64,000 bases of DNA from Alphaproteobacteria bacterium (GTDB taxonomy: Bacteria > Pseudomonadota > Alphaproteobacteria > SP197): the NCBI GenBank assembly GCA_965228895.1, contig OZ245842.1, positions 4,416,001 to 4,480,000 of the forward strand, given 5' to 3'. A program made the position numbers and the translations under genes. Positions 7,572-52,303 of the stretch are shown in pieces; the first letter of the stretch is position 1; every line of letters starts with the position of its first letter. The notes below the pieces were generated by a model. It saw only the letters and a list, made by a program, of their open reading frames with translations. It was not told where the DNA came from and did no database searches.

Positions 7572-8824
7572 GGGTGCTGCAGAACCCCCTGGGTACGTTC
7601 CAGATAGGCGTGCATGATGAGGTGCGGGTCTTCCATCAGGCGATCCTTCCAGGTGCCCAAGGGAACCTCGGTCTGGATCAGGCCGCGCAGCACGCCGACA
7701 TGCTGGGTCAGGCCCAGCGACAGCGAGCCCACCAGCTTGTCGTCCTTGAAGTTCAAACGCAGATAGGTGGAGCGCGCGGAGTCGACGGCGATCGACTCAT
7801 CGCCGCCTTCGGCGCCATCCCACAGGCCGTAGGAGCTTGAGATCAGGCCCAAGGTGTTCAGCACGTTCATGACCAGGCTGCCGCGGTAAGGCGTCTTGTG
7901 GCCGGTCATGTTGCGCGCGGCGATGCGGCCATGCTCGCTTGCCGTCGGCTGGATCGCGTGCACGTCGTAACCGCCGGTCGAGAAGTCCGGACCTTCGGCG
8001 ACGTCGCCGGCGGCATAGACGTTGGCGACAGAGGTCTCCATGAAATGGTTCACCTTGATGCCCGTCGACGTCTCGATGCCGGAGCCGTCCAGGAATGCGA
8101 TGTTGGGCTTGACGCCGGTAGCGCAGACGACGAGGTCCGCGTCCAGGCCCTTGTCGTCGTTGTTGAGCGTCAGGTGCAGACCGTTGGCGCCCTGCTCGAC
8201 CGCATCGACACGGGTCGACGTCAGGACCTTGACGCCCTTGTCTTCACACCAGGCCTTGATGATGTCGCCGCCGGTCTTGTCCATCATGCGCGCGACCATG
8301 CGATCTTCCATTTCGATGACCGTCAGCTCGACACCGCGCGCGACGAGCGCTTCAAGAATAATGCAGCCGATGAAGCCGGCGCCCATCAGGACGACCTTGT
8401 CGCCCTTCTTGGTTTTGCTGACGATGTGGCGGGCGTCTTCCAGCGTCCAACAGGACTCCACGTTGTCGAGATCCATGCCGGGGATCGGCGGCCGCACGGG
8501 GTGCGAACCGGTGGCCAACAGGAGTTTGTCGAAGTTGAGCGAACCGCCGTCTTCAAGCGTGACTTCGCCCTTGTCGGCAGCAACGGAAGCGACGCGGCCA
8601 TGGCGCACGTCGATATTGAGGTTGTCGAAATGGCCGGCGCCGTGGCGCAGATGGGTGCCCTCCTCGACGATGTTCTCGGCCAGAAGATAGGGGATCGCCA
8701 TGCGCGAATAAGGCGCTTCCGGCTCTTCGCCGATCAGCGTGATGCCAGCCGAACGGTCGAGCTTTCTCAGGTTTTCCGCAGCAATCACACCGGCAGGTCC
8801 GGCGCCGACAACGACATGGTTCAT
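7568..8824 (-). CDS. aorC: FAD/NAD(P)-dependent oxidoreductase, AOR flavoprotein subunit (AorC-like)
   Basis: VVVGAGPAG, LLLATGS, MGAGFIG, TS...VYAAGD. Operon position matches the Aromatoleum-type aorABC arrangement. Confidence 0.85.
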   Translation of the reverse strand: MNHVVVGAGPAGVIAAENLRKLDRSAGITLIGEEPEAPYSRMAIPYLLAENIVEEGTHLRHGAGHFDNLNIDVRHGRVASVAADKGEVTLEDGGSLNFDKLLLATGSHPVRPPIPGMDLDNVESCWTLEDARHIVSKTKKGDKVVLMGAGFIGCIILEALVARGVELTVIEMEDRMVARMMDKTGGDIIKAWCEDKGVKVLTSTRVDAVEQGANGLHLTLNNDDKGLDADLVVCATGVKPNIAFLDGSGIETSTGIKVNHFMETSVANVYAAGDVAEGPDFSTGGYDVHAIQPTASEHGRIAARNMTGHKTPYRGSLVMNVLNTLGLISSSYGLWDGAEGGDESIAVDSARSTYLRLNFKDDKLVGSLSLGLTQHVGVLRGLIQTEVPLGTWKDRLMEDPHLIMHAYLERTQGVLQHP

Positions 8825-8853
8825 GACAGTCCCCTCAACATAATCACGCCCGT

Positions 8854-8886
8854 CCGACCGCCCCGTCTAGTGATCGAGGCGGTCGG
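8854..8886. other. Intra-operon stem-loop between aorB and aorC
   Basis: CCGACCGCC (8854-8862) pairs perfectly with GGCGGTCGG (8878-8886). No U-tract follows. Confidence 0.5.
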
Positions 8887-8918
8887 CGGTACGCCGTTTC
8901 TTAGCGGCCGTGCGAGCT

Positions 8919-10739
8919 CTAAAGACCGAGACGCGACAACGTCTCGTTGCTCGGCACACCATCCTCTGTCCAGCCGCGGAACTGGTAATATTCCGGCAGC
9001 ATCTTATCGAGTTCGGCAACCTTGCCCTTGGCGTTGCCGGTCGGCGCCGGCGTTTCCAGCATGCGCTTGGGCAAGGTGTCGTCGGCCTTGGTCAGACCGG
9101 CGCCCAGGTTGAACATGCGCTCCAGGTTGAAGGTCCGCTCGCCGCATTCGGTGATGCGCTCCAGCGTCCAGTCGCCCTCGCACGCCGCGTCGATCTGGGC
9201 GGCGAAGTCCTCGGGACCCCAGGCCGCCGTGGTGAAGAGGCAGAGCCCAGTCGAATCGATCATGGCAACGACGTCCTGGCTCTTCTTCACCGGTTCGGCT
9301 TTGCCGTTGCCCGAAACGTCTTCCATGTCCTCGGCGAAGACATCGTGCTTCAGATGGCAGGCGCCGCGGTTCGACGTGGCGTAGCCCAGACCCATGCCCT
9401 GCAAGGCACGGCTGTCGTAACCCGCGAACTCCTGGCCCTTGACGCCCATGAAGAACTCGGGATGGCCGTACTTCTCGGTGAGCCGCTTGGAGCCGAGCGC
9501 CAGTTCCTTGCCGAAACCCTCGCCCTTGCCGGTCTTCTCGGCCATCACCGCAAGCGCCTCGGCATTGCCGAACTTGAGCTCGATGCCGTCGGTCTGCTCT
9601 TTGGTCAGCGCGCCGACTTCATAGAGCTCCATGGCCGCGGCAAGCGTCACGCCGAACGAGATCGGGTCCATGCCGTGCTCGTTCATCATGAAGTTGGCGA
9701 AGGTCAGCGCGTCGATATCGTCGACGCCGACCACCGGACCGAAGGCATAGGCCGTCTCGTACTCCAGCCCGCCGGAAGCGTGCTGGTATTGCGGCCGGTT
9801 GACGACGGTGAAGTGCTCCTTGTCGATATGCGCGATGCGCCCGCACGCGATGGTGCAGCCGAAGCAGGCCTTGTTGGTGATCAGGTTGACGTGGCCGTGC
9901 TCGTTCTTGGTGATCGCGAAGTTCGGATTGATCTTGCCGGTGCCTTCGAACTGCACCTCGTTGAAGTTGCGGGTCGGCAGGCCGCCCCACTCCTCCATGG
10001 CGTCGATCATCGCCAGCGTGCCTTCCTGGGTCAGGCCCTTGCGACCTTCGCTCTCGGCAAGCTTGGCGTGGGTATCCTTGATCACCTCCATGAACGTCTT
10101 GGGATCGTGAACGGTGACGCCCTTGGTGCCGTGGCAGGCGATCGCCTTCAGGTTCTTCGACCCCATGACGGCGCCGACGCCGGAGCGCCCGGCGGCACGA
10201 TGCAGATCGTTGACGACGCAGGCGTAGTAGACGCCGTTCTCGCCGGCCTCACCGATCGAGGCGACCTTCAACAACGGGTTCTGGTGACGCGCCTTGATCC
10301 ACTCTTCGGTGTGCCAGACGCCGGTGCCCCACAGCTCGTCGGCCGGCAGGATCTCGACGGTGTCGTCGACGATGTGCAGATAGACCGGGCTTTTTGCCCT
10401 GCCTTCCAGAATGATCAGGTCGTAGCCCGCATACTTCATCTCCGCGCCGAACTTGCCGCCGGAGTTCGAGCACGCGATGGCGTTGGTCAGCGGACCCTTG
10501 CACAGCACGGCATATCGCCCGCTGGTCGACGACATCGTGCCGGTCAGCGGTCCCGTCGCGAAGATCAGGACATTGTCCGGGCTCATCGGATCGGCCTTGG
10601 GGTCCATGTTCTCGTAGAGATACTTGGTGCCCAGGCCGCGCTCGCCCATATAGGCCTCGGCCCACTCCATGTTGAGCGGCTCGGACTTGGCCGTGCCCTC
10701 GGTCAGATTGACGCGAAGAACGTTTTTCTGCCATCCCAT
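8919..10739 (-). CDS. aorB: Aldehyde ferredoxin oxidoreductase family (W-bis-pterin) catalytic subunit
   Basis: SNSGG.FG.E.K.AGYD, SIG.AGEN.V, AAGRSG.GAVMGSKNLKAI, CFGCTIACGR, G.EYET, RGACHL, DTLPKR, YY..RGW..DG.P motifs of the AOR family. Confidence 0.95.
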   Translation of the reverse strand: MGWQKNVLRVNLTEGTAKSEPLNMEWAEAYMGERGLGTKYLYENMDPKADPMSPDNVLIFATGPLTGTMSSTSGRYAVLCKGPLTNAIACSNSGGKFGAEMKYAGYDLIILEGRAKSPVYLHIVDDTVEILPADELWGTGVWHTEEWIKARHQNPLLKVASIGEAGENGVYYACVVNDLHRAAGRSGVGAVMGSKNLKAIACHGTKGVTVHDPKTFMEVIKDTHAKLAESEGRKGLTQEGTLAMIDAMEEWGGLPTRNFNEVQFEGTGKINPNFAITKNEHGHVNLITNKACFGCTIACGRIAHIDKEHFTVVNRPQYQHASGGLEYETAYAFGPVVGVDDIDALTFANFMMNEHGMDPISFGVTLAAAMELYEVGALTKEQTDGIELKFGNAEALAVMAEKTGKGEGFGKELALGSKRLTEKYGHPEFFMGVKGQEFAGYDSRALQGMGLGYATSNRGACHLKHDVFAEDMEDVSGNGKAEPVKKSQDVVAMIDSTGLCLFTTAAWGPEDFAAQIDAACEGDWTLERITECGERTFNLERMFNLGAGLTKADDTLPKRMLETPAPTGNAKGKVAELDKMLPEYYQFRGWTEDGVPSNETLSRLGL

Positions 10740-10751
10740 GATCGTTCTCCC

Positions 10752-11225
10752 TCAAGCCGCCGGCTGGTTGTCGGTTTTGACGGCCCAGGCCTGCATCCGT
10801 TCGTAACCGGTCCAGGCTGAGTCGACATAGGTGATGGCGTCGGTCGGACAGGCCTCGGCGCATTTCGGATCGCCGTGGCACAGGTCGCATTTGATGACCT
10901 TGCCGGTGTCGGGGTTGTAGTTCACCGTGCCGAACGGACAGGCGATGGTGCAGACCTTGCAGCCCACGCAGACGTCATCGAGCACCTCGACTGCGCCGGT
11001 TTCCGGGCTCCTGACCAGGGCCTCGACGGGGCAGGCATGCAGACACCAGGCTTCCGCGCACTGGGTGCAGGTATAGGGCACGGCGCGCCGGCCGTGCTCG
11101 AATTCGAAGATCTTGATCCGCGACCGCGCCGGATTGAACGTGCCTTCGTGCTCGAACGAACACGCCATCTCACACTGCAAGCAGCTCGTGCACTTTTCCG
11201 GATCGATCAGAAGCGATTTCTGCAT
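10752..11225 (-). CDS. aorA: 4x[4Fe-4S] ferredoxin subunit (AorA/CooF-like)
   Basis: CTSCLQCEMAC, CTQC...CLHACP, CVGCKVCTIACP, CDLC...CAEACP. Confidence 0.93.
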   Translation of the reverse strand: MQKSLLIDPEKCTSCLQCEMACSFEHEGTFNPARSRIKIFEFEHGRRAVPYTCTQCAEAWCLHACPVEALVRSPETGAVEVLDDVCVGCKVCTIACPFGTVNYNPDTGKVIKCDLCHGDPKCAEACPTDAITYVDSAWTGYERMQAWAVKTDNQPAA

Positions 11226-11369
11226 GGTGGACCCCTTGTTCAACGCATGACATCGACCCCCTGGCCGGCATCCTGAAACCCGCCGAGGGCCTTCCTCACC
11301 ATCTTAGACCGGTTTGATCGCGTCTGTGTAGAGCCGGCATGTCGATTACCCTGACAATTCAGGGGCCTT

Positions 11370-11636
11370 TCAGCGATAGATGGCCGCACCGAGTTCGCGC
11401 TTCTTCGCGGCCCACGCCTCAGGGTTGAGCATGACAATGCCGTAGCGCGCGACCAGCGCCTCGATCGCACCGTCGCGGATCTGATGGTACTGGGTGAGCT
11501 GGCCGGGCTCGGCGACGACGATGAAATCGGGACCGGCATCGATGTGACCGGCGACCGCCCTGGCGCCATCCGGGCTCATCACCGTCACAAGCCGGCCCCA
11601 CCCGTGGGTGATCCCTCTGAGACCATAAAGCTCCAT
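11370..11636 (-). CDS. Hypothetical protein, 88 aa, paralogue of 33866..34135
   Basis: MELYGLRGITHGWGRLVTVMSPDGARAVAGHI...QYHQ...LVARYGI...WAAKK.ELG.AIYR aligns end to end with the ORF at 33866-34135. That alignment supports both the ORF and the ATG at 11636. Confidence 0.8.
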   Translation of the reverse strand: MELYGLRGITHGWGRLVTVMSPDGARAVAGHIDAGPDFIVVAEPGQLTQYHQIRDGAIEALVARYGIVMLNPEAWAAKKRELGAAIYR

Positions 11637-11781
11637 CGCGTGATCAGTTCGTTTCCCAAAAAGTTGCCTCTCGACAAACAGAGCATGGCGAGGGCCTGAT
11701 GGACCAGTTTGGCGGGGGCGCCTTACCGGAATGTGAAGGTGGTGTGCGGCCTCGTCCAGTACCACGGCGAGAACTCTGCGT

Positions 11782-12954
11782 ATGAAACCGTTGCCCGCTC
11801 TGATCGCCGTCCTGCTCGTCACCACGAGCCTGGGGTCGATCCACGCGTTCAGCGTGATCGTCGCGCCGCTCGAGGCGCGATTCGGCGCCAGCCGGGGCGA
11901 TGTCAGCCTGGCCTATTCGCTCGCCCTGATCAGCCTGACCGTCGCCGTCTTGTTCGGTCACAAGATCTATCACCGCCTGACGCCGGCACTGATTGGCGGC
12001 GGCGCCTGTCTTCTCGCCGCCACAGGCCTGGTCGTGTCCGCCGTCGCGCCGGCCCTGATCTTGGTCTACCTCGCCTACGGCATCCTGTTCGGTTTCGCCA
12101 ATGGCGTCGGTTACGGCTTTTCGCTGATCGCGTCGGCGCGCGCCTTTCCGCAGCGCCAAGGCATGGCCATGGGCCTGGTGACAGCGTGTTATGCGGTCGG
12201 CGCGATCGTCTTCGCCCAGGTGCTGAAGCTCGTCTACGACCCCATGGGCCTGACCGCCGCGCTGATCGTGAATGCCGGCGCGATCGCCGCCTGCGGCGTG
12301 GTCGCCGCCATCTTGCTGCAACGATCGGGCCTGCGCATGGGTCATGCCGCCACGACAGCGGCAGCCGGCATCCAGGGCGATATCAAGCCCGTCGCTCTGC
12401 TGTGGCTGGGTTTCGGTTTCGGCTGCACGGCCGGGGTCGTGGCGATCAGCCATGCCGCCGGTGTGGTCACCGAGCTCGGCGGCAGCGACCATCTGGCCGT
12501 TCTGGGTGTCATGCTGATCGGCTTCGGCAACGCCGTGGGCGGCCTGCTGATTGCCGGTCTGGCCGACCGTCTGCCATTGCGGCTCCTCCTGGTTGGCCTG
12601 CCCAGCCTCTCGACGGCCGGCTTGCTCGCGCTCGCTGCACTCAACGCACCGGTGCCAGCTGTCGTGTGCCTCGCCGTCATTGGTCTGGCCTATGGCGGGA
12701 TCGCGGCGATCTATCCGGTCGCCACGACACGGCGGTTCGGTATCGACCGCACGCCCAGGATCTATGGCCTGATCTTCACGGCCTGGGGCGTCGCCGGATT
12801 TGTCGGCCCTTGGCTCGCGGGCGTGATCTACGACGTCGAGGGCGGATACCAAACCGCCTTGGTGCTGGCAGCGGTCGCGGCAGTTATCTCAGCGGGTGCG
12901 ACTACGTGTCTGCGTCTTTCCCGGCAGGATCAATCGGAGACACTCAAAACCTAG
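11782..12954 (+). CDS. MFS transporter (OFA-like)
   Basis: About 12 hydrophobic segments, GSIHAFSV, FPQRQGMAMG, G.ADRL, RIYG.IFTAWG.AG. Confidence 0.9.
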   Translation: MKPLPALIAVLLVTTSLGSIHAFSVIVAPLEARFGASRGDVSLAYSLALISLTVAVLFGHKIYHRLTPALIGGGACLLAATGLVVSAVAPALILVYLAYGILFGFANGVGYGFSLIASARAFPQRQGMAMGLVTACYAVGAIVFAQVLKLVYDPMGLTAALIVNAGAIAACGVVAAILLQRSGLRMGHAATTAAAGIQGDIKPVALLWLGFGFGCTAGVVAISHAAGVVTELGGSDHLAVLGVMLIGFGNAVGGLLIAGLADRLPLRLLLVGLPSLSTAGLLALAALNAPVPAVVCLAVIGLAYGGIAAIYPVATTRRFGIDRTPRIYGLIFTAWGVAGFVGPWLAGVIYDVEGGYQTALVLAAVAAVISAGATTCLRLSRQDQSETLKT

Positions 12955-43767: not shown

Positions 43768-45078
43768 ATGGCACTACCCAATTATCCCGGTTTCGACACG
43801 CTGACGCTGCATGCCGGTCAGCAGCCCGATCCCACGACCGGCGCGCGCGCCGTGCCGATCTACCAGACGACATCCTATGTCTTCCGCGACGTTGATCAGG
43901 CCGCCGCTCTCTTCAACCTGGAGCGGCCGGGCCATATCTATTCGCGCATCTCCAACCCGACCGTCGCGGTGCTGGAGGAACGGGTCGCGGCGCTCGAGGG
44001 CGGCGTCGGCGCGGTGTGCACGGCAAGCGGCCAGGCGGCGCTCCATCTGGCGATTGTCACCTTGATGGACCAGGGCAGCCACATCGTGGCGTCCGGCTCG
44101 ATCTATGGCGGCAGCCACAACATGTTCAACTACACCCTGCCGCGCTTCGGCATCGAGACGACCTTCGTCAACCCGCGTGACACCAAAGCGATCAAGAACG
44201 CGATCCGGCCGGAGACCCGCCTGATCTTCGGCGAAACCCTAGGCAACCCGGGCCTGGAGGTCATGGACATTCCGGTGGTCTCGACGATTGCCCACGATCA
44301 CGGTATTCCGCTGATGATCGACAACACCTTCGCCTCGCCGGCGCTGGCCCAGCCGCTCACCATGGGCGCCGACATCGTCATGCATTCGGCAACCAAGTTC
44401 ATGGGCGGTCATGGCGTTGCCATCGGCGGTGTCATTGTCGACCGCGGCGCCTTCGATTGGGAGGCCTCCGGCAAATTCCCGACCCTGACAGAACCTTACG
44501 CCGGTTATCACGGCATCGACTTCGCCGAGGAGTTCGGCCCCAACGCCATGCTGATGCGCGCCCGCGCCGAGGGCGTGCGCGACTTCGGCGCCTGCATGAG
44601 CCCGACCAACGCGTTCTATATCCTGCAGGGCGTCGAGACGTTGCCGCTGCGCATGGCGCGCCATGTCGAGAACACGCGGAAGATCGTCGCCTTTCTGGAC
44701 GGCCATGATGCCATCGAGTCTGTCGGCTACCCCGAGCTTGAAAGCCATCCCGATCATGCGCTCGCCAAGAAGCTGCTGCCGCACGGCTGCGGCGCCATCT
44801 TCAGCTTTGTCCTGAAGGGCGGCCGGCCGGCCGGCGCCAAGTTCATCGAGGCGCTGCAGCTCTTCTCCCATCTCGCCAATGTCGGCGATGCGAAGTCGCT
44901 GGTTATTCATCCGGCCAGCACGACGCACCAGCAGATGGACGCCGCCGCGCTTGAAGCCGCCGGCATCTCGGAAGGCCTGGTCCGGCTTTCGGTCGGGCTC
45001 GAGGATGCCAATGATCTGATCGAGGATCTCGAACGCGGCCTGCGCGCCGCCAAAAAGGCTTCAACCCATGGCGCTTGA
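43768..45078 (+). CDS. metY: O-acetylhomoserine aminocarboxypropyltransferase (sulfhydrylase)
   Basis: LHAGQQPDPTTGARAVPIYQTTSY, YSRISNPT, DNTFA, HSATKF (PLP Lys), HLANVGDAKSLVIHPASTTH. ATG 43768 follows AGGAGG. Confidence 0.93.
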   Translation: MALPNYPGFDTLTLHAGQQPDPTTGARAVPIYQTTSYVFRDVDQAAALFNLERPGHIYSRISNPTVAVLEERVAALEGGVGAVCTASGQAALHLAIVTLMDQGSHIVASGSIYGGSHNMFNYTLPRFGIETTFVNPRDTKAIKNAIRPETRLIFGETLGNPGLEVMDIPVVSTIAHDHGIPLMIDNTFASPALAQPLTMGADIVMHSATKFMGGHGVAIGGVIVDRGAFDWEASGKFPTLTEPYAGYHGIDFAEEFGPNAMLMRARAEGVRDFGACMSPTNAFYILQGVETLPLRMARHVENTRKIVAFLDGHDAIESVGYPELESHPDHALAKKLLPHGCGAIFSFVLKGGRPAGAKFIEALQLFSHLANVGDAKSLVIHPASTTHQQMDAAALEAAGISEGLVRLSVGLEDANDLIEDLERGLRAAKKASTHGA

Positions 45079-45868
45079 TCTCACAGTCGATGGCAAAAAG
45101 GTCTTTGCGGCAACCGGCGGCAAGGTCTTCGATCCCGCGCTCCCGGTCATGATGTTCGTCCACGGCGCCAGCATGAACCGCACGGTCTGGGCGCTGCCGG
45201 CGCGTTACTTCGCCCATCACGGTTACGCGGTGATGGCGGTCGACCTGCCCGGCCACGGCAACTCCGAAGGCCCGCCGTTGCCGACGATCAACGCCATCGG
45301 CGACTGGCTTGTCGCAACGCTGGATGCCGCCGGTGTCGAGCGCGCCACCCTTGTCGGCCACTCCATGGGCACGCTGCCCTTGATCGATGCCGCCGCACGA
45401 CATGGCGACCGCATCGAGCGTGTCGTTCTGCTCGGCACGTCGGTGCCGATGCCGGTGGCCGACGCGCTGCTCGACAACGCCGAGGCCAACAACCACGCGG
45501 CGTTCGACATGGTGACGCTCTGGGGCTTCAGCAAAAAAGCGCAGATCGGCGGCAACCGGGCGCCGGGTACCTGGGTGACCGAAACCGGGCTGCGCCTTCT
45601 TGAACGTGGCGCGCCCGGCGTGCTGCATAACGACATGAAGGCGTGCAACGACTATCAGTCAGGCCTGGAGGATGCCGCCAAGATCGCGTGTCCGGCGGTG
45701 CTTATCCTGGGCGACCGCGACATGATGACACCGCCGCGCAACGCCAAGAGCCTGATGGAGGCCTTGCCGAACGGCCGCATGATTGTTCTGAAAGGCTGCG
45801 GCCACATGATGATGGCCGAGCAGCCCGACGAGACCCTGGACGCCATGATTGAGGCGATGGCAGCCTAA
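45068..45868 (+). CDS. Alpha/beta-fold hydrolase
   Basis: FVHGA, DLPGHG.S, GHSMG nucleophile elbow, G..D.MTPP, GHMMMAEQP. Overlaps the end of metY. Confidence 0.92.
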   Translation: MALDLTVDGKKVFAATGGKVFDPALPVMMFVHGASMNRTVWALPARYFAHHGYAVMAVDLPGHGNSEGPPLPTINAIGDWLVATLDAAGVERATLVGHSMGTLPLIDAAARHGDRIERVVLLGTSVPMPVADALLDNAEANNHAAFDMVTLWGFSKKAQIGGNRAPGTWVTETGLRLLERGAPGVLHNDMKACNDYQSGLEDAAKIACPAVLILGDRDMMTPPRNAKSLMEALPNGRMIVLKGCGHMMMAEQPDETLDAMIEAMAA

Positions 45869-46082: not shown

Positions 46083-46110
46083 CTTGATTTGTCTCCAAAA
46101 TCCCCCATGT
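46083..46110 (+). promoter_or_regulatory. Putative RpoH (sigma-32) promoter
   Basis: CTTGATT-N13-CCCCATGT versus the consensus CTTGAAA-N13-17-CCCCATNT, 50 bp upstream of the first gene of the pspA operon. Confidence 0.7.
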
Positions 46111-46127
46111 GTATACAAATGTAAACA
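46110..46127 (+). promoter_or_regulatory. Putative operator: tandem TGTAWACA boxes
   Basis: TGTATACA (46110-46117) and TGTAAACA (46120-46127), 10-bp period, directly after the -10 element. Confidence 0.55.
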
Positions 46128-46159
46128 TTCGCTGACATAAGCTTGGAGGCTTCAGCCCC

Positions 46160-46690
46160 GTGCCCAACAAGACCGTGCCCTTGAGCGTCCGTATCTCGGA
46201 GGCGGACGCCGATTTTCTCAATGGCCTCGCCATACCCGGCGCCACCACACACAGCGAAAAGCTGCGCGCCTTGATTGCCGAGGCCCGGCGCAGACGGTCA
46301 GGAAACCGCAGTTATGCGGATGTTTTGGCCGTTTTGCAGGATATCGAAGCACCGGCCGAGCGCCGGTTGCGCGATGCGGAGGGCCGCGTGAAGCAGCACT
46401 CCGAACTGCTGGCCCAGGCTGCGTCCTGGCTGCCAGACACCATGGCCTACCTGATGGGCAATCTGCCCAACGCCGATGACGACGAAGCGGCGGGCAAGCT
46501 CCAGGCGCTCGAAGACGGATTGGCCGACCGCGTATTTGTGTTTGTTGAGCGGGTCTTGCGTATGGCGGTAACGCGGCACAACCCCTGCTACGATAGCTCC
46601 GCTATCTCGCGTCGCATGGAACCCGTGGTTGAGCTTTGTGACATCATTCGTGCCCAAGTAGAGACGGAGAAAGGAAGGACCGATGGCTGA
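46160..46690 (+). CDS. Hypothetical protein with an N-terminal ribbon-helix-helix-like segment (putative regulator)
   Basis: GTG start after GGAGG. TVPLSVRISEADADFL...SEKLRALIAEA has a strand-helix-helix pattern. Overlaps pspA. Confidence 0.75.
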   Translation: MPNKTVPLSVRISEADADFLNGLAIPGATTHSEKLRALIAEARRRRSGNRSYADVLAVLQDIEAPAERRLRDAEGRVKQHSELLAQAASWLPDTMAYLMGNLPNADDDEAAGKLQALEDGLADRVFVFVERVLRMAVTRHNPCYDSSAISRRMEPVVELCDIIRAQVETEKGRTDG

Positions 46691-47360
46691 TAATCTTGGA
46701 TCACGCGTTGGCCGTTTGATCAGCGGCGCTGCAAACCAACTCATCGACGCGGCGGAGAACATGGCGCCCGAGGCGGTCATGGAACAGGCCGTGCGCGAAA
46801 TCGATAAAGGAATCGACGACGTCCGCGCCGAACTCGGCAAGGTCGTCGCGCGCAAGCACCTGGCGTCAAACCGGCTTGCCGACGAGAATGCCAAACACAA
46901 CGCGCTGTCCGAAAAGGTCCAGCTGGCGGTCAAGGAAGGCCGCGAAGACCTGGCCGAGACAGCGGTCGGCAAACTGCTCGACATCGAGGCACAGATCCCG
47001 GTGCTCGAACAGTCGATTGCCCAGGCCGGCGAAGACGAAGCCGAGATGGAAGGTTTCATCACCGCGCTTCAAGGCCGCAAGCGTGAGATGCAAGACGAAC
47101 TCGCGCAGTTCCGCAAAGCACAGAAACAGAGCGGAGCGCAAAGCGTGACCGGAGGCAGCCCCGCCGGCCCCAGTGTCGCCGAGTCAGTGAGCCGCGCCGA
47201 GAAAGCCTTCGACCGCGTGATGGAGCGTTCGGCGGGTCTTGCCCCCGGCAGCTCGACGCCTGACGCGAAGACGGCCAAAGAGCTCGCCGAGCTCGATGAC
47301 CTCTCGCGCAAGAACCGCATTCAGGAGCGGTTGAGCCAGTTCAAGTCAAGCGCGTCCTGA
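46683..47360 (+). CDS. pspA: PspA/IM30 (bacterial ESCRT-III) family protein
   Basis: N-terminal amphipathic helix, AE..APEAVMEQAVRE, A...GREDLA..A, long coiled coil, C-terminal IQERLSQFK. Confidence 0.9.
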   Translation: MADNLGSRVGRLISGAANQLIDAAENMAPEAVMEQAVREIDKGIDDVRAELGKVVARKHLASNRLADENAKHNALSEKVQLAVKEGREDLAETAVGKLLDIEAQIPVLEQSIAQAGEDEAEMEGFITALQGRKREMQDELAQFRKAQKQSGAQSVTGGSPAGPSVAESVSRAEKAFDRVMERSAGLAPGSSTPDAKTAKELAELDDLSRKNRIQERLSQFKSSAS

Positions 47361-47388
47361 TCGCGCCCGAGGAGGGATAACCACAACC

Positions 47389-48126
47389 ATGTCCAGCCTG
47401 TTGCAGCCCGAGAACGTTCTTTTCACGACGGCCATCGTCGTGATGCTCGGCATCGCCGTCCTTGAAGGCGTCGCGACACTGCTGGGCATGGGTATGTCGT
47501 CGTTCATCGACAACATGCTTCCCGACACGCCCGATGTGGACGTGGACCTGGATGTCGACCTCGATGTCGACATGGATGTCGATATGGACATGGACCTCGA
47601 TGCCGATGCGGCCATCGACGCACCGGAGCTCGGACATGCCAGCGCGCTGTCATCCCTGTTGGGGTGGTTGTGTATCGGCAAGGTGCCGGCGCTGGTCCTG
47701 CTCGTGGTCCTGCTGACCGTGTTCGGTCTGGGCGGCTTGATCGTGCAATCCCTCATCGCCGGCGTGATCGGCGGCCCGCTTACCGCGTGGATCATCGCGC
47801 CCGTGGTGTTCATCGCCAGCTTGCCGGTGGTGCGCGTGTTCGGGCTCGGCTTTTCCAAGCTCATACCGAAGGAGGAAACATCCGCGGTGACGCGCGACAG
47901 CTTTATCGGCCGCGTCGCCACCATCACCCTGGGCACCGCCAAAAAAGGCATGCCGGCCCAGGCCAAGCTCACCGACCAGCACGGCCAGACCCACTACGTC
48001 ATGGTCGAGCCGGATGTCGACGGCGACACGTTCGATGCCGGCGACCAGGTGCTCTTGGTCAGCGGCGAAAGCGCGGTCTTCCGCGTCATCGCGGCGACCG
48101 GCGGGGTGCTCGATACCGATAGCTAA
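47389..48126 (+). CDS. yqiJ: YqiJ family inner-membrane protein (NfeD-like OB fold)
   Basis: TM1, acidic (Dx)n linker, LGWL.IGKVP, IPKEETSAV, IGRVATIT.G.A..G.PAQAK..DQHGQTHYVMVEP. Confidence 0.9.
   Translation: MSSLLQPENVLFTTAIVVMLGIAVLEGVATLLGMGMSSFIDNMLPDTPDVDVDLDVDLDVDMDVDMDMDLDADAAIDAPELGHASALSSLLGWLCIGKVPALVLLVVLLTVFGLGGLIVQSLIAGVIGGPLTAWIIAPVVFIASLPVVRVFGLGFSKLIPKEETSAVTRDSFIGRVATITLGTAKKGMPAQAKLTDQHGQTHYVMVEPDVDGDTFDAGDQVLLVSGESAVFRVIAATGGVLDTDS
47534..47610 (+). repeat. In-frame 6-bp-period low-complexity repeat (Asp-x)n
   Basis: Encodes DVDVDLDVDLDVDMDVDMDMDLDADA within yqiJ. Confidence 0.8.
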
Positions 48127-48185
48127 GCCAGCGCAAGAATGGCAGCCGTTAACCCCCTGACGACCAACAGACTGGAGTAGAGACC

Positions 48186-49919
48186 ATGGCCATTATCGAC
48201 ATCCTTATCTTAGCAGGCATCGCGCTTGTCGCCCTGCTAACCATCGGGCTGATCATGGCGCGGCTCTACCAGCGCGCGACCAAGGAAATCTCGTTTGTGC
48301 GTACCGGCATGGGCGGCCAGAAGGTCGTCATGAACGGGGGCAGCCTGGTCTTCCCCGTGCTGCACGACACCATTCCCGTCAACATGAACACGCTGCGGCT
48401 GGAAGTCCGGCGCAACGACCAGCAGGCGCTGATCACGCGCGACCGCATGCGCGTCGACGTGCTGGCCGAATTCTATGTCCGCGTCCAGCCGACCGCCGAC
48501 TCGATCGCGGCCGCCGCCCAGACGCTGGGCAAGCGCACCATGCATCCGGAGTCGCTGAAGGAACTGGTCGAAGGCAAGTTCGTCGATGCCTTGCGCGCCG
48601 TCGCCGCCGAGATGGCGATGGAAGAGTTGCACGAGCAACGCGTCCAGTTCGTCCAGAAGGTGCAGACCGCGGTGTCTGAGGATCTGTTGAAGAACGGCCT
48701 GGAGCTTGAGTCCGTGTCCTTGACCGGCCTCGACCAGACCGACCGCGACTTCTTCAACCCGAACAACGCGTTCGACGCCGCCGGTCTGACCAAGCTGACC
48801 GACGAGATCGAGGACCGCCGCAAGCGGCGCAACGAGATCGAGCGCGACACGAAGGTGGCGATCGAACTGAAGGATCTGGAGACCGAACGCCAGTCGCTGC
48901 AGATCGGCCGCGACACCGAATACGCTCGTCTTGAACAGACCCGCGAGGTCGAAGTCCGCCGCGCCTCTCAGGTCGCCGAGATCGCCAGGGAACAGGCCGA
49001 ACAGGAGCGTGAGGCCGAACAGGCGCGCATCATGGCGACCCGCGATGTCGAGCAGTCGAAGATCGAGGCCGAGCGAGAGGTCGAACAGGCGCGCATCGAA
49101 AAGGATCGCGAGGTCAAGGAACGCGACATCAACCGCAACAAGGCCATTGAACTGGCCAACCAGGACCGCGAGATCGCGGTTGCTGAAAAGTCGAAGGCGC
49201 AATCCGTCGCCCAGGCCGAGGCCGACCGCGCACGCGCCGAGGCCGTGCGCGAGGAGGAGCTCGTCATCACCTCGCGTGAAACCGAGCAGGCCGAGCGTCA
49301 GAAGATCGTCGAGCTGGTCGAGGCCCGTCGGGTCGCCGAACGCGAAGCGATCAAGATCAAAGTCGCGGCCGAGGCGCAGAAGGATGCCGCCAACGACGAG
49401 GCTGACGCCATCCGCACGCTGGCCGAGGCGGCGTCTGAGAAGGTGCGCATCGAAGCCAGCGGTGAGTCGGAGGCCGAAAAGCTGAAGGCGGTGGCAGCGG
49501 AGATCCGCTATGCCGTCGAAGCTGCCGGGCGCAAGGCGCTCAACGAGGCCGACAACACGCTGACGGAAGAGATCGTCGCGATGAAGGTGAAGCTCGCCAT
49601 CATCGAGAACCTGCAGTCGATCATCCGCGAATCCGTCAAACCGATGGAGCAGATCGACGGCATCAAGATCGTTCAGGTCGACGGCCTGACCGGCAACGGC
49701 GGCAACGGCGGCGGAAACGGTGGCGCTGCGATCGAAGGCGCCGGCGCTGGCGGCGGTGCCGGCCTCGCCGACCAGGTTGTCGCCAGCGCGCTGCGTTACC
49801 GCAGCCAGGCGCCGCTGATCGATGCGCTGATGAAAGAGGTCGGCCTCAACAGCGACAACCTCGACGGCTTCGTCGACAGCTTGAAGGACGAGGTCGGCCG
49901 TAACGACGCGGGAGGATAA
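48186..49919 (+). CDS. yqiK: Flotillin / SPFH domain protein (YqiK family)
   Basis: N-terminal TM, FVRTG.GGQKVV..GG, VNMNTLRLEV, LITRDRMRVDV.AEFYVRV, NGLELESVSL, FNPNNAFDA.GL, AEA/EAE coiled coil, SALRYR.QAPL. Confidence 0.95.
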   Translation: MAIIDILILAGIALVALLTIGLIMARLYQRATKEISFVRTGMGGQKVVMNGGSLVFPVLHDTIPVNMNTLRLEVRRNDQQALITRDRMRVDVLAEFYVRVQPTADSIAAAAQTLGKRTMHPESLKELVEGKFVDALRAVAAEMAMEELHEQRVQFVQKVQTAVSEDLLKNGLELESVSLTGLDQTDRDFFNPNNAFDAAGLTKLTDEIEDRRKRRNEIERDTKVAIELKDLETERQSLQIGRDTEYARLEQTREVEVRRASQVAEIAREQAEQEREAEQARIMATRDVEQSKIEAEREVEQARIEKDREVKERDINRNKAIELANQDREIAVAEKSKAQSVAQAEADRARAEAVREEELVITSRETEQAERQKIVELVEARRVAEREAIKIKVAAEAQKDAANDEADAIRTLAEAASEKVRIEASGESEAEKLKAVAAEIRYAVEAAGRKALNEADNTLTEEIVAMKVKLAIIENLQSIIRESVKPMEQIDGIKIVQVDGLTGNGGNGGGNGGAAIEGAGAGGGAGLADQVVASALRYRSQAPLIDALMKEVGLNSDNLDGFVDSLKDEVGRNDAGG

Positions 49920-49928
49920 ACCCCCGTC

Positions 49929-49950
49929 AGGGGCGGCTTCGGCCGCCCCT
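49929..49950 (+). other. Stable stem-loop with a UUCG tetraloop after flotillin
   Basis: AGGGGCGGC-TTCG-GCCGCCCCT, a perfect 9-bp stem. No U-tract, so it may stabilise the mRNA or only partly terminate transcription. Confidence 0.65.
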
Positions 49951-49971
49951 CTAACAAAGGAGTGACGTGAC

Positions 49972-50211
49972 ATGAGTCTTCTGTTGTTCCTTGGCGTACC
50001 CCTAATCTTCTTCGGAGGCTGCCTGACCGCGGCCGGTTTCCTTGGGCCCGCCGGCAGCACGTTCGTCAGCGGCTACCGCACGTCCGGCGGGACACCGATC
50101 CAGAGCCGTGTCCACAACCAGCCCTATGACGGCGAACGCAAAAAGAAAATGCGCTGGCTGGGTCTGAAGCTAAGTGCCGTGGGCGCCGTGCTGGTTATCG
50201 TCGCGGGCTGA
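49972..50211 (+). CDS. Small two-TM membrane protein, array member 1
   Basis: RBS AAGGAG. TM1 LGVPLIFFG, TM2 LGLKLSAVG. Confidence 0.8.
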   Translation: MSLLLFLGVPLIFFGGCLTAAGFLGPAGSTFVSGYRTSGGTPIQSRVHNQPYDGERKKKMRWLGLKLSAVGAVLVIVAG

Positions 50212-50248
50212 TTGGCCGACAACACTTAACCAGGAAGGAGATGTGATC

Positions 50249-50467
50249 ATGGGTGTTATAGGACTGGTGTTGGTCTGTCTCGGCTGCCTGATTACCGGCG
50301 TCGGCATCTTCTCAGCCGCCAACCTGTTCGGCCTCATTTCAAAGGACGAACGGTATCATGGGACGACCACGGACAAGGGTGTGCATCGCACCAACCTGTG
50401 GGTCCTGCTGACCGGCCTCGGTATGCTCGCGGTTGGCTTCGGCTTCATTTTTCTAACCAGCGCTTAG
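50249..50467 (+). CDS. Small two-TM membrane protein, array member 2
   Basis: RBS AAGGAG. TM1 LGCLITGVGIFSAAN, TM2 TGLGMLAVG. Confidence 0.82.
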   Translation: MGVIGLVLVCLGCLITGVGIFSAANLFGLISKDERYHGTTTDKGVHRTNLWVLLTGLGMLAVGFGFIFLTSA

Positions 50468-50602
50468 AGCAGATCCTGTTTTGATGGAATCGCTTCGCGA
50501 TGACATCAAGACGGGTGAATCCGCTCTACTCATTGATAAAGAGCGGATTCACATGGTTAGATGGGACCGTCAAGCGGTCCCATCTAACCATGATCCGCTC
50601 TA
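50465..50602 (+). repeat. Double-hairpin repeat, family B copy 4
   Basis: TAGAGCAGATC...GTGAATCCGCTCTA, linker, AAGAGCGGATTCAC...GATCCGCTCTA. Begins at the TAG stop of the preceding ORF. Confidence 0.9.
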
Positions 50603-50633
50603 GGCGCGTGATCGACGACAGGAGATTGCGATC

Positions 50634-50855
50634 ATGGAAATTGCCGCCGTTGTCTTTCTGACCTTAGGCATTCTCGTCATCGGCTTCGGCCTGCTGTCGC
50701 TTTGCAACATTCTGAATCTGCCCCTGACCGATCACCAGGCCAAGAACGCCGACATGACGACCAGCAGGTTTCAGGTCGCCCAGGCGAGGATCATGCTGCT
50801 GGGTGCGGCCCTGCTTGCCATCGGCATCGTGCTGTTTGTCCTGACAGGGGCATAG
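50634..50855 (+). CDS. Small two-TM membrane protein, array member 3
   Basis: RBS AGGAG. TM1 LGILVIGFGLLSLCN, TM2 LGAALLAIG. Confidence 0.85.
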   Translation: MEIAAVVFLTLGILVIGFGLLSLCNILNLPLTDHQAKNADMTTSRFQVAQARIMLLGAALLAIGIVLFVLTGA

Positions 50856-50867
50856 GCGGGTGACACC

Positions 50868-51089
50868 ATGGCCATCTCCGCCATCATGTTGCTCATCCTC
50901 GGGATAGCCCTGATCTGCTTTGGCGGCCTGTCGTTCCAGAATTTCAGCAACATGCCGTTCATGGACGACGACATGGATCAAGCCCACAAGGCAGGGAAAC
51001 GTTTTGCGGCCCTACACATCAAGGTCTCGCTGATCGGTGCTATCCTGCTTGCCATCGGCGCCGCCTTGGCCTCGCTCAGCGAGGTTTGA
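50868..51089 (+). CDS. Small two-TM membrane protein, array member 4
   Basis: TM1 LGIALICFGGLSFQN, TM2 IGAILLAIG. Same length (73 aa) as member 3. Confidence 0.85.
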   Translation: MAISAIMLLILGIALICFGGLSFQNFSNMPFMDDDMDQAHKAGKRFAALHIKVSLIGAILLAIGAALASLSEV

Positions 51090-51338
51090 GTGTACTGGAC
51101 AATTGAAACCCTTAGCACGACAAGCGGCATCGGAGGCCTGATGGTGCTCATCGGACTGGTGTTTGCTGCGACAGTCTTCTTCCCAAACGGACTAACCAAA
51201 GGGCATGTCCATCACTCCTCTTACTCGCTTGACCGCGACTATCCAATCTGGCGGTGGTTCAAGATCGGCATTGCAATACTGGGAATCTGTCTGGCCATTG
51301 CGGGAACGCTGATACAGGTGTATTGGCCCGACGCATGA
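51090..51338 (+). CDS. Small two-TM membrane protein, array member 5 (most diverged)
   Basis: GTG directly after the previous TGA, with RBS GAGG. TM1 IGGLMVLIG, TM2 LGICLAIAG. Its stop overlaps the DUF1835 ATG. Confidence 0.75.
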   Translation: MYWTIETLSTTSGIGGLMVLIGLVFAATVFFPNGLTKGHVHHSSYSLDRDYPIWRWFKIGIAILGICLAIAGTLIQVYWPDA

Positions 51339-52303
51339 CCTCGACCCTTCACATTCGCTGCGGTTCGGACATTCGTGACGGCCTGGCCCAAGCCGGCATA
51401 CCCGGCGACTTCCTGGAGTTTTCCGATCCCGTTTGCAAAGGCGGCACGCCCGATGGCGACGATGACGTCTTTCATGCCGCGCGTCTGGCCTATCTGACCG
51501 GCGAGCTCGGTGTGTCGCCTGCGCCAACGGATACAGGATTGCGCGAGGCGATGAGTCGCCTCGAACAGACACGAGACTACGAGCGTCTCGTGCTGTGGTT
51601 CGAACATGATATCTACGATCAGGCGGTTCTGATCCGTTTGCTCTCCTGGTTTGCGGAACGGCCCGACCTGGAGCCGCGCCTCAACATGATCGCCATCGAC
51701 CGCTTCCCCGGCATCGACCGTTTCATCGGTCTTGGTCAGCTCGATCCAAATCAGCTGAAATCGTTATGGGGCAGCGAGCAGCCGGTAACACGGGCGCAGA
51801 TCGCGCTCGGCCAACGCGCCTGGCAGGCGTTTCGCGCGCCGGAACCCCTCTCGCTGTTCGATCTTGCCGCAGCGGGCACGCCCAATCTGCCGTTCCTGGC
51901 GCCCGCCCTGATGCGGCACCTTCAAGAGCTGCCGTGGACGACCGACGGGCTCTCGCTCACCGAACGGCTGACGCTGCGCGCTATCGCCGAAGGCGCTGCA
52001 ACGCCCGGCCAGTGTTTCCGCGACCTGCACGGCCGTCTCGAGCCGCAGCCCTTCCTGGGCGACATCATGTATTGGCCGATCGTCACCAACCTCGCCCGCG
52101 GCAAGGCGGGCGCGGTTACCGAGCCGGAGACCTGGAAGTCTCCGATCGCGCTGACGTCGTTTGGCAGAGACCTGCTCGCCGGCACGGCCGACTGGATCGA
52201 GACCAACGGCATCGACCGCTGGGTCGGCGGCGTGCACGTCACGCCCGGCAACCTCTGGCGTTGGGACGCGGCGGCCAGCCGCCCTGTAAGAGACTCGGGC
52301 TAG
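51335..52303 (+). CDS. DUF1835 domain protein
   Basis: TLHIRCGSD, F.DP.C.G, LVLWFEHD.YDQ..L, FIGLGQL, R.LQELP...DGLSLTE, FLGD, IDRWVGGV. Confidence 0.85.
   Translation: MTSTLHIRCGSDIRDGLAQAGIPGDFLEFSDPVCKGGTPDGDDDVFHAARLAYLTGELGVSPAPTDTGLREAMSRLEQTRDYERLVLWFEHDIYDQAVLIRLLSWFAERPDLEPRLNMIAIDRFPGIDRFIGLGQLDPNQLKSLWGSEQPVTRAQIALGQRAWQAFRAPEPLSLFDLAAAGTPNLPFLAPALMRHLQELPWTTDGLSLTERLTLRAIAEGAATPGQCFRDLHGRLEPQPFLGDIMYWPIVTNLARGKAGAVTEPETWKSPIALTSFGRDLLAGTADWIETNGIDRWVGGVHVTPGNLWRWDAAASRPVRDSG

Follow-up and report, generated by a model that had tools for sequence, protein, structure and literature searches.

Ten closely packed genes, all on the + strand, lie at 46160–52303 of the window, the 64,000-nucleotide (nt) stretch of contig OZ245842.1 of an alphaproteobacterium that was analyzed here. 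The locus raises two questions: whether these genes form one membrane-stress system, and how the genes for PspA, YqiJ, and flotillin among them are controlled. An open reading frame (ORF) scan of the window placed the ten co-oriented genes just as the initial annotation had described them, with an 8-nt overlap of the regulator stop and the PspA start at 46683–46690, small genes 4 and 5 abutting at 51089/51090, and the stop of small gene 5 overlapping the start of the DUF1835 gene in an ATGA at 51335–51338. We consider it probable (roughly 70%) that the region (46083–52303) consists of a four-gene cassette with its own ribbon-helix-helix (RHH) autoregulator, an older resident array of genes for small two-transmembrane (2-TM) proteins, and a separate DUF1835 gene. 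The cassette and its control region contain the following features.

46083–46110, + strand: predicted sigma-32-type promoter, with -35 CTTGATT at 46083–46089, a 13-nt spacer, and -10 CCCCATGT at 46103–46110.
46110–46137, no strand: candidate operator of tandem palindromic 8-mers with a 10-bp period.
46160–46690, + strand: putative regulator of 176 amino acids, with an RHH domain (residues ~5–48) and a C-terminal four-helix domain (52–175); no Pfam or NCBIfam family.
46683–47360, + strand: PspA/IM30 family protein (PF04012).
47389–48126, + strand: YqiJ, an NfeD-like membrane protein with a C-terminal OB domain (PF21001 and PF07290).
48186–49919, + strand: YqiK-like flotillin (PF01145 and PF15975) with an N-terminal hydrophobic stretch, an SPFH/Band_7 domain, a coiled coil, and a Flot domain; the gene starts 60 nt 3′ of the YqiJ gene.

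Contigs from one genome per species were scanned with a 9-row alignment of the regulator, which gave 201 related loci; 80 of these were retained. The ten proteins of the window were then compared with all ORFs of each of 84 loci (numbered with L below; whole genomes are numbered with G). Matches were found to the regulator in 83 loci, to PspA in 74, to YqiJ in 70, and to flotillin in 64. Where at least 3.4 kb of sequence was available downstream of the regulator gene, the order regulator–PspA–YqiJ–flotillin was present in 58 of 65 loci; L067, which has no separate regulator ORF, was left out of this count. The 80 kept loci belong to at least eight phyla as named in the record titles, and come from Alpha-, Beta-, Gamma-, and Zetaproteobacteria, Desulfobacterota, Bacteroidota/Ignavibacteriota, Verrucomicrobiota, Spirochaetota, Bdellovibrionota, Planctomycetota, Fibrobacterota, and Myxococcota. 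Downstream of flotillin the gene content varied by locus and was often on the opposite strand. In the neighborhood survey of the regulator that the initial annotation had proposed, conservation thus ended at flotillin, and nothing 3′ of it was conserved. These results indicate that the regulator, PspA, YqiJ, and flotillin are a self-contained unit recurring across phyla.

The seven exceptions were four loci with the regulator alone (L031, L075, L079, and L081), two loci without PspA (L044 and L080), and one decayed locus (L036). Since loci without PspA exist, the regulator does not strictly depend on the PspA of the cassette. When the four regulator-only genomes were searched for the PspA subfamily of the cassette, only distant paralogues were obtained (E-values of 1e-8 to 1e-11), and none in G044. 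L075, L079, and L081 are of the Pleionea/Kangiellaceae type, and three of the four regulator-only loci share the same neighboring ORFs. In L036, the decayed cassette (8506–11850) has a truncated PspA gene, an unrelated insert, and only a fragment of the flotillin gene. L067 (8001–10133) contains a single 710-amino-acid ORF in which the regulator RHH sequence runs into flotillin, probably an internal deletion joining the first and last cassette genes, or an assembly artifact. The flotillins of L047 (a Reichenbachiella bin) and L052 (a Fibrobacterales bin), which share an isolate-name prefix, were nearly identical (branches of 0.05–0.07), and this near-identity points to recent transfer or mis-binning.

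The initial annotation had recognized a PspA–YqiJ–flotillin membrane module, and all three proteins matched the corresponding Pfam families. PspA matched PspA_IM30 (PF04012) with 63.5 bits against a cut-off of 33.9, residues 7–222 covering positions 4–216 of the 220-position profile, and was the only PF04012 match in the genome. Its orthologues from many phyla showed 47–57% identity to it. With the equivalog models of E. coli PspA and LiaH, its scores were far below the cut-offs; by these profile scores, the protein is a member of the PspA/IM30 family and not an orthologue of E. coli PspA or LiaH. YqiJ can be assigned to its family by YqiJ_N (PF21001; 118.7 bits) and YqiJ_OB (PF07290; 100.7 bits). 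The flotillin matched Flot (PF15975; 132.9 bits) and Band_7 (PF01145; 62.3 bits), its translation begins with a hydrophobic N-terminus, and its orthologues in the 64 loci had E-values of 1e-187 to 1e-228. It scored 78 bits with the FloT equivalog model against a 700-bit cut-off and is, on this score, a bacterial flotillin and not a FloT orthologue.

Separately, the first loop of YqiJ (residues ~46–75) contains an acidic (Asp-hydrophobic)n repeat (DVDVDLDVDLDVDMDV...) after a conserved LLPD motif. The repeat was present in the cassette orthologues compared and was very variable in length, which suggests a cation-binding or length-tuned element.

The protein encoded by the first gene matched no Pfam or NCBIfam family above the cut-offs. 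In a collection of 5.8 billion proteins it corresponded to only 36 clusters, none with a Pfam domain and the named ones all called "hypothetical protein". The full-length structural model (predicted local distance difference test [pLDDT] score, 81) contained two short helices (residues 14–22 and 31–46) followed by four long helices (52–175). In the model of residues 1–53 alone (pLDDT 82.5), helices at 14–22 and 31–46/49 followed an extended N-terminal segment. Comparison of this 53-residue model with known structures using VIA-align gave predominantly RHH DNA-binding proteins among the 50 matches listed, with Z-scores of 3.4–5.7 and root-mean-square deviations of 2.1–5.5 over 42–52 aligned residues. 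The best match was NikR (Z 5.7), and the others included Rv0298, TacA1, ParD2, CopA, the PutA RHH domain with operator DNA, AmrZ with DNA, Arc, the omega repressor, and ParG. The top Foldseek rows for the N-terminal domain were also RHH proteins, but at E-values of 0.8–9, and the atlas neighbors of residues 1–50 (NikA-like, RHH_1, MobC_2, and RHH_3; scores of 0.77–0.80) are leads only. As modeled, the N-terminal domain has the strand, helix A, turn, and helix B of the RHH fold, while its sequence places it in no RHH family.

For the full-length model, no Foldseek match in the PDB was obtained at E ≤ 0.001, and residues 49–143 gave only generic helical bundles in VIA-align (best Z 7.1), with no specific match. 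The C-terminal four-helix domain is presumed to be the signal-receiving part. A search of PDB sequences with the regulator-family profile returned a lysozyme repeat peptide, APH, and FtsE, which were weak or repeat-driven and were judged spurious. AbiEii, Tetraspanin, and DUF2157 appeared among the weak family matches to the regulator and the small proteins, all below the cut-offs, and were discarded.

The tandem palindrome TGTATACA, or near variants of it, precedes the regulator gene in nearly all loci. In the window, the boxes are TGTATACA at 46110–46117, TGTAAACA at 46120–46127, and a degenerate third box, CGCTGACA, at 46130–46137. When up to one mismatch was allowed, 100 sites were found in the 80 upstream regions of 150 nt, against 127 in 6415 control windows drawn from the same loci (ca. 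60-fold enrichment). At least one box was present in 60 of the 80 regions and at least two in 34, and 29 of 40 adjacent box pairs were spaced at 10 bp. The tandem box pair, with up to two mismatches, had a single match in the 5.53-Mb genome, and the reversed control had none. Of the 60 loci that have a box, 29 carry a TTGACA-like -35 element no more than 30 nt before the first one, at offsets that cluster at 2–3 and 12–15 nt; the boxes therefore occupy the spacer, the -10 element, and the start region. Regulator genes that stand alone also carry boxes in front.

The core of the box varied together with the N-terminal β-strand of the protein. RHH dimers read the major groove of repeated sites with a two-stranded antiparallel ribbon, and the phased palindromes and this covariation are indirect signs that the regulator may do so too. 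The 73 loci with a ..S-V/A-R strand had 48 GTATAC cores and 2 GTTAAC cores, and the six loci with a Q-I/V-G-V-R strand had no GTATAC core and 8 GTTAAC cores. The window itself, whose strand reads LSVR, stood outside both classes in this count owing to a coordinate offset. Five of the six Q-I/V-G-V-R loci had a row in a quick flotillin tree, where they split between two distinct clades with good support, one a Woeseiaceae-type group and the other L060; this suggests that the switch from GTATAC to GTTAAC reflects about two independent changes. The TGTATACA boxes are likely the putative operator of the regulator. Because they are enriched, phased, unique in the genome, and covary with the β-strand, we read the 176-amino-acid protein as most likely a DNA-binding autoregulator that would act as an operator-binding repressor, in agreement with the dedicated RHH-type repressor that had been postulated in front of PspA.

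The same protein might instead be no transcription factor at all, acting as a PspA adaptor or chaperone in the slot of a CesT/Tir-like YjfI protein, or as an antitoxin-like protein. Its gene occupies the position held by CesT_Tir before PspA–YqiJ–flotillin in the available passages of Ravi et al. (PMC11237479), its stop overlaps the PspA start, and antitoxins are frequent among its best structural matches. An adaptor, however, would hardly account for boxes that are conserved, phased, genome-unique, and covarying with the protein, or for the retention of the gene, boxes included, without the rest of the cassette in four genomes; the model is also an RHH domain with an all-helical bundle and not an α/β fold, and no toxin-like gene is adjacent. 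We consider either role very improbable.

The initial annotation had placed a sigma-32-like promoter before the first gene. The sigma-32 consensus has a CTTGAAA-like -35 element and a CCCCATNT-like -10 element, 13–15 nt apart, and the sequence at 46083–46110 conforms to it. The strict pattern CTTGA[AT][AT]-N12-15-CCCCAT has four matches in the 5.53-Mb genome (both strands), and one of the other three precedes an hsp20 gene. The layout of the window promoter is the same as that of the promoters of the genome's own hsp20b (CTTGAAA-N13-CCCCATAT) and hsp20c (CTTGAAA-N13-CCCCACGT), and looser versions were found upstream of dnaK and groES1. From ~46070 to the start codon, the sequence is invariant in three species of the genus except for differences confined to the spacer, and it has diverged further upstream. 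The boxes abut this promoter, position 46110 being both the end of the -10 element and the start of the first box.

Alternatively, CTTGATT...CCCCATGT may be a coincidental match or may be read by a housekeeping sigma factor. Most other loci have a sigma-70-like TTGACA beside their boxes, of 65 upstream regions, only those of the window and L005 had the strict pattern, and two of its four matches in the genome have no obvious heat-shock gene downstream. Set against this, the nearest TATACA lies 22 nt from TTGATT, a distance too long for a sigma-70 promoter; a sigma-70 scan found no site in the 46083–46110 region; the layout equals that of hsp20b and hsp20c; and both promoter boxes are invariant among the three species. 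This alternative appears doubtful to us, and we continue to favor a sigma-32 promoter, which by its sequence would be used by sigma-32. Gating of a heat-shock-type promoter by the regulator is plausible for this genus; such a promoter is not a general feature of the cassette.

According to the reading that we favor, dimers of the regulator would bind two or three tandem TGTATACA boxes, one helical turn apart. The boxes, the first of which overlaps the final base of the -10 element, would cover the transcription start; the bound regulator would block RNA polymerase and thereby adjust expression of the operon that encodes it. Sigma-32 activity and release of the regulator would both be needed for expression in this genus, whereas a TTGACA -35 box precedes the boxes in most other lineages. 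From the behavior of their families, flotillin and the NfeD-like YqiJ are expected to form a membrane scaffold, and PspA a polymer that seals or remodels stressed membrane.

A further step would be that the cassette is a portable, host-independent circuit for membrane damage, in which free PspA or the YqiJ/flotillin scaffold holds the four-helix domain on or off DNA. The operon would be switched on when this partner is recruited to damaged membrane and switched off by newly made protein, as a repressor-based counterpart of the PspF–PspA partner switch that moved between phyla as a unit. A PspA partner switch is attractive because the regulator and PspA genes overlap, in the window and, as ORF coordinates suggest, in many other loci. 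The predicted complex of PspA and the regulator scored 0.00, which counts neither for nor against binding. We put this circuit forward tentatively and regard it as rather unlikely in this form.

The region 3′ of the flotillin gene has the following features.

49929–49950, + strand: GC-rich hairpin between flotillin and the first small gene, with an 8-bp stem, a TTCG loop, and no U-tract.
49972–50211, + strand: small 2-TM protein 1, 79 amino acids; ratio of nonsynonymous to synonymous divergence (dN/dS) of 0.13–0.41.
50249–50467, + strand: small 2-TM protein 2, 72 amino acids from the ATG at 50249; a longer GTG form begins at 50174.
50468–50605, no strand: copy of a ~137-bp repeat that resembles a miniature inverted-repeat transposable element or a repetitive extragenic palindromic (REP) element; it contains two long inverted repeats and is inserted after small gene 2 and before small gene 3.
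50634–50855, + strand: small 2-TM protein 3, 73 amino acids; a close homologue lies directly 3′ of the hydrolase gene in the cassette-free G014.
50868–51089, + strand: small 2-TM protein 4, 73 amino acids, a member of the 2-TM family.
51090–51338, + strand: small 2-TM protein 5, 82 amino acids, GTG start, a member of the 2-TM family.
51335–52303, + strand: DUF1835-like protein, 322 amino acids; the start agrees with that of the G025 homologue.

The five small proteins share a 2-TM architecture and form one paralogous family, which matched no Pfam or NCBIfam family above the cut-offs. The reading frames were kept and dN/dS was 0.12–0.56 across the three species, indicating that these are real genes under purifying selection. 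The three species carry arrays of 5, 7, and 7 copies, and identity between species was 46–87% for the small proteins versus 89–99% for the four core genes. The family is small: a word search gave 3 clusters, and a set of 1.84 billion proteins yielded 17 representatives at E ≤ 0.001. Of 25 genomes from the taxonomic family, 20 nevertheless carry it, mostly in single copy, including all three genomes of genus g2 and 14 of the 15 of genus g4. The regulator was not found in these two genera.

The hairpin at 49929–49950, GGGGCGGC-TTCG-GCCGCCCC, is followed by a ribosome-binding site and by no T-tract, and its stem and loop are invariant in the three species. We dropped its interpretation as an intrinsic terminator, given that it lacks a U-tract and was not listed by a terminator scan. 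The repeat at 50468–50605 has at least 59 further copies in the genome, with 83–98% identity, and its predicted fold energy is −91.6 kcal/mol; it is specific to this species, the same gap being ~30 nt in the two sister species.

The window DUF1835 protein scored 20.4 bits with PF08874, just under the cut-off of 21.1, and its 57%-identical homologue in G025 scored 31.6 bits. Among 41 genomes, the protein was found in this genus and G025 only. In G025, the DUF1835 gene is on contig C87 and the cassette on C2, and no small genes lie beside the DUF1835 gene.

The initial annotation had combined all ten genes into one membrane-stress or defense module, in which the small proteins would be interchangeable cargo or sensors and DUF1835 one more component. 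In its favor, all three species have the array and DUF1835 behind flotillin in the same orientation and separated by short gaps, the intervening hairpin has no U-tract and is followed by a ribosome-binding site, the array reaches 5–7 copies only with the cassette versus 1–2 elsewhere in the family, and the small genes evolve fast relative to the core. Outside this genus, however, the extended arrangement did not hold. No match to the small proteins or DUF1835 was obtained beside the cassette in the 79 loci of other organisms (L006–L084) or in L004, only in L005, a metagenome-assembled genome of the same genus; the window proteins served as queries, and the small family was also searched by profile. 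The 17 genomes of g2 and g4 that carry the small family lack a detectable regulator, and in six of them a small gene adjoins the hydrolase gene described below. With DUF1835 on a separate contig in G025, no conservation 3′ of flotillin, and the link between amplification and cassette amounting to a single lineage event, the co-occurrence that the ten-gene module predicts was absent elsewhere. None of the ten proteins matched a family of the PADLOC-DB 2.0 defense models at E-values up to 0.001. We therefore regard the ten-gene module as improbable.

How the array came to lie behind the cassette can be followed at the hydrolase gene upstream of it (45068–45868). In G014, G019, G020, G009, G015, and G003, a small gene is located ~14–160 bp 3′ of the hydrolase orthologue. 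Because these regulator-free relatives carry the small gene next to the hydrolase gene, the small gene was already at this site before the cassette, which was inserted between the two. In G014, G007, and G005, metY, the hydrolase gene, and a convergent acyl-CoA dehydrogenase gene are 0.3–1.4 kb apart without the cassette block; in G017 and G023, no acyl-CoA dehydrogenase gene was found within the stretch compared. As an observation in its own right, the hydrolase/small-gene junction is split by 8–92 kb in many genomes of g4 (G012, G013, G016–G018, and G021–G024). The arrangement suggests that the junction is a recurrent insertion site. In a quick tree with a midpoint root, the window flotillin grouped apart from the main alphaproteobacterial clade. 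On the reading of a cassette beside an older array, a family-restricted 2-TM gene that stood at the site before the cassette arrived would have been amplified to 5–7 copies in this genus (49972–51338 in the window), and DUF1835 would be a gene of its own, with its translation coupled to that of the last small gene. As one possibility, the amplified, fast-evolving 2-TM proteins might in this genus now be clients of the newly arrived flotillin scaffold.

Compared with G001 and G002, synonymous divergence was 0.18–0.39 for the regulator, YqiJ, and flotillin genes and 0.38–1.9 for the small genes and DUF1835, with mixed values for PspA (0.27 versus 0.52–0.57). The lower divergence of the core genes hints at recombination or a later spread of the cassette within the genus.

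Several observations weigh against the reading of an RHH-autoregulated cassette beside an unrelated array. No Pfam RHH model (e.g., PF01402) matched any of the 23 regulator-family members scanned at E-values up to 5, and the structural Z-scores (3.4–5.7) are modest, as expected for a domain of ~45 residues. At up to one mismatch, only 34 of the 80 upstream regions had two or more boxes and 20 had none, some loci using variant boxes. The covariation of box and strand amounts to about two evolutionary events, related loci not being independent. The sigma-32 pattern occurred in only two of 65 upstream regions (those of the window and L005), sixteen loci lying outside that scan. L044 and L080 keep the regulator with YqiJ and flotillin without PspA, and four genomes have the regulator only, which argues that a PspA partner is not obligatory. 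In this genus, flotillin is without exception followed by the small genes and DUF1835 in the same orientation, behind a hairpin without a U-tract, and the array may be co-transcribed with the cassette by read-through and have a local functional link with it.

The linkage of PspA, NfeD, and flotillin is already known. Ravi et al. 2024 (PMC11237479) describe, in the passages available, CesT/Tir–PspA–YqiJ/YuaF–flotillin(–AAA+) operons, such as that of Dokdonia donghaensis, and propose a role in membrane dynamics. These operons share PspA–YqiJ–flotillin with the window. However, their first gene encodes a CesT/Tir (DUF2170) protein, whereas the window has an RHH plus four-helix protein with a candidate operator and no such Pfam match, and a β-propeller/AAA+ ATPase gene comes next in those operons and is missing from the window cassette. 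An RHH gene appears in these passages only as the last gene of the spermine-synthase-type PspA operon. In Acidobacteriota, according to the available part of Popp et al. 2022 (PMC9239133), PspA has Band_7/FloT and NfeD neighbors and helix-turn-helix regulators; PspA is thus linked to flotillin, NfeD, and an operon-encoded regulator as in the window, but the regulator is of the helix-turn-helix type, and no operator or RHH family is named in that part. A "PspA" in a preprint on flotillin-associated rhodopsins was set aside, being probably the name "PsPAR"; the passages available contained no text on PspA.

The window regulator shares its N-terminal RHH fold with NikR, the PutA RHH domain, omega, and Arc. 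RHH repressors use short repeated operator units about one helical turn apart that overlap the promoter, as do the boxes of the window; MetJ, for instance, is an RHH repressor with tandem 8-bp boxes. In NikR the C-terminal domain receives the signal, and that of the window regulator could do likewise. Unlike these repressors, the window regulator belongs to no sequence family, and its C-terminal domain has no specific structural match. In the classical Psp response, PspF acts with sigma-54, PspA is the anti-activator, and PspBC are the sensors. Common to both is a PspA gene with a dedicated control system beside it, for which membrane stress is a plausible inducer, but control in the window is by a presumed repressor at a sigma-32/sigma-70-type promoter; pspB, pspC, and pspF were not found within the window cassette, to which that search was confined, the rest of the genome lying outside it.

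What is new in this known class of PspA–NfeD–flotillin operons is the regulator and its operator. In the literature searched, we found no description of the regulator family, the operator, or the four-gene unit as a widespread cassette, although unread supplements may bear on this; a sigma-32-driven flotillin operon was likewise not found described in that literature, mostly consulted at the abstract level. The inducers of bacterial flotillin systems and of non-classical PspA systems are poorly known beyond a few model species. The cassette offers a compact four-gene unit in ~200 species genomes of many phyla, an uncharacterized regulator family without a Pfam or NCBIfam model, and a short, predictable operator. 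The inducing signal thereby becomes directly testable, and the cassette becomes recognizable in genome annotation. The locus also illustrates that tidy co-orientation can mislead, a mobile cassette having landed beside an older, lineage-restricted array of small genes.

Outside the window, heat-shock control sites lie upstream of the groES matches that end near 1678280 and near 1531104 on contig C1 of the genome. A perfect controlling inverted repeat of chaperone expression (CIRCE), TTAGCACTC-N9-GAGTGCTAA, is carried by groES2; at groES1, a sigma-32-like site precedes a CIRCE-like variant. From these sequences, CIRCE and sigma-32 heat-shock control appear to coexist in the genome.

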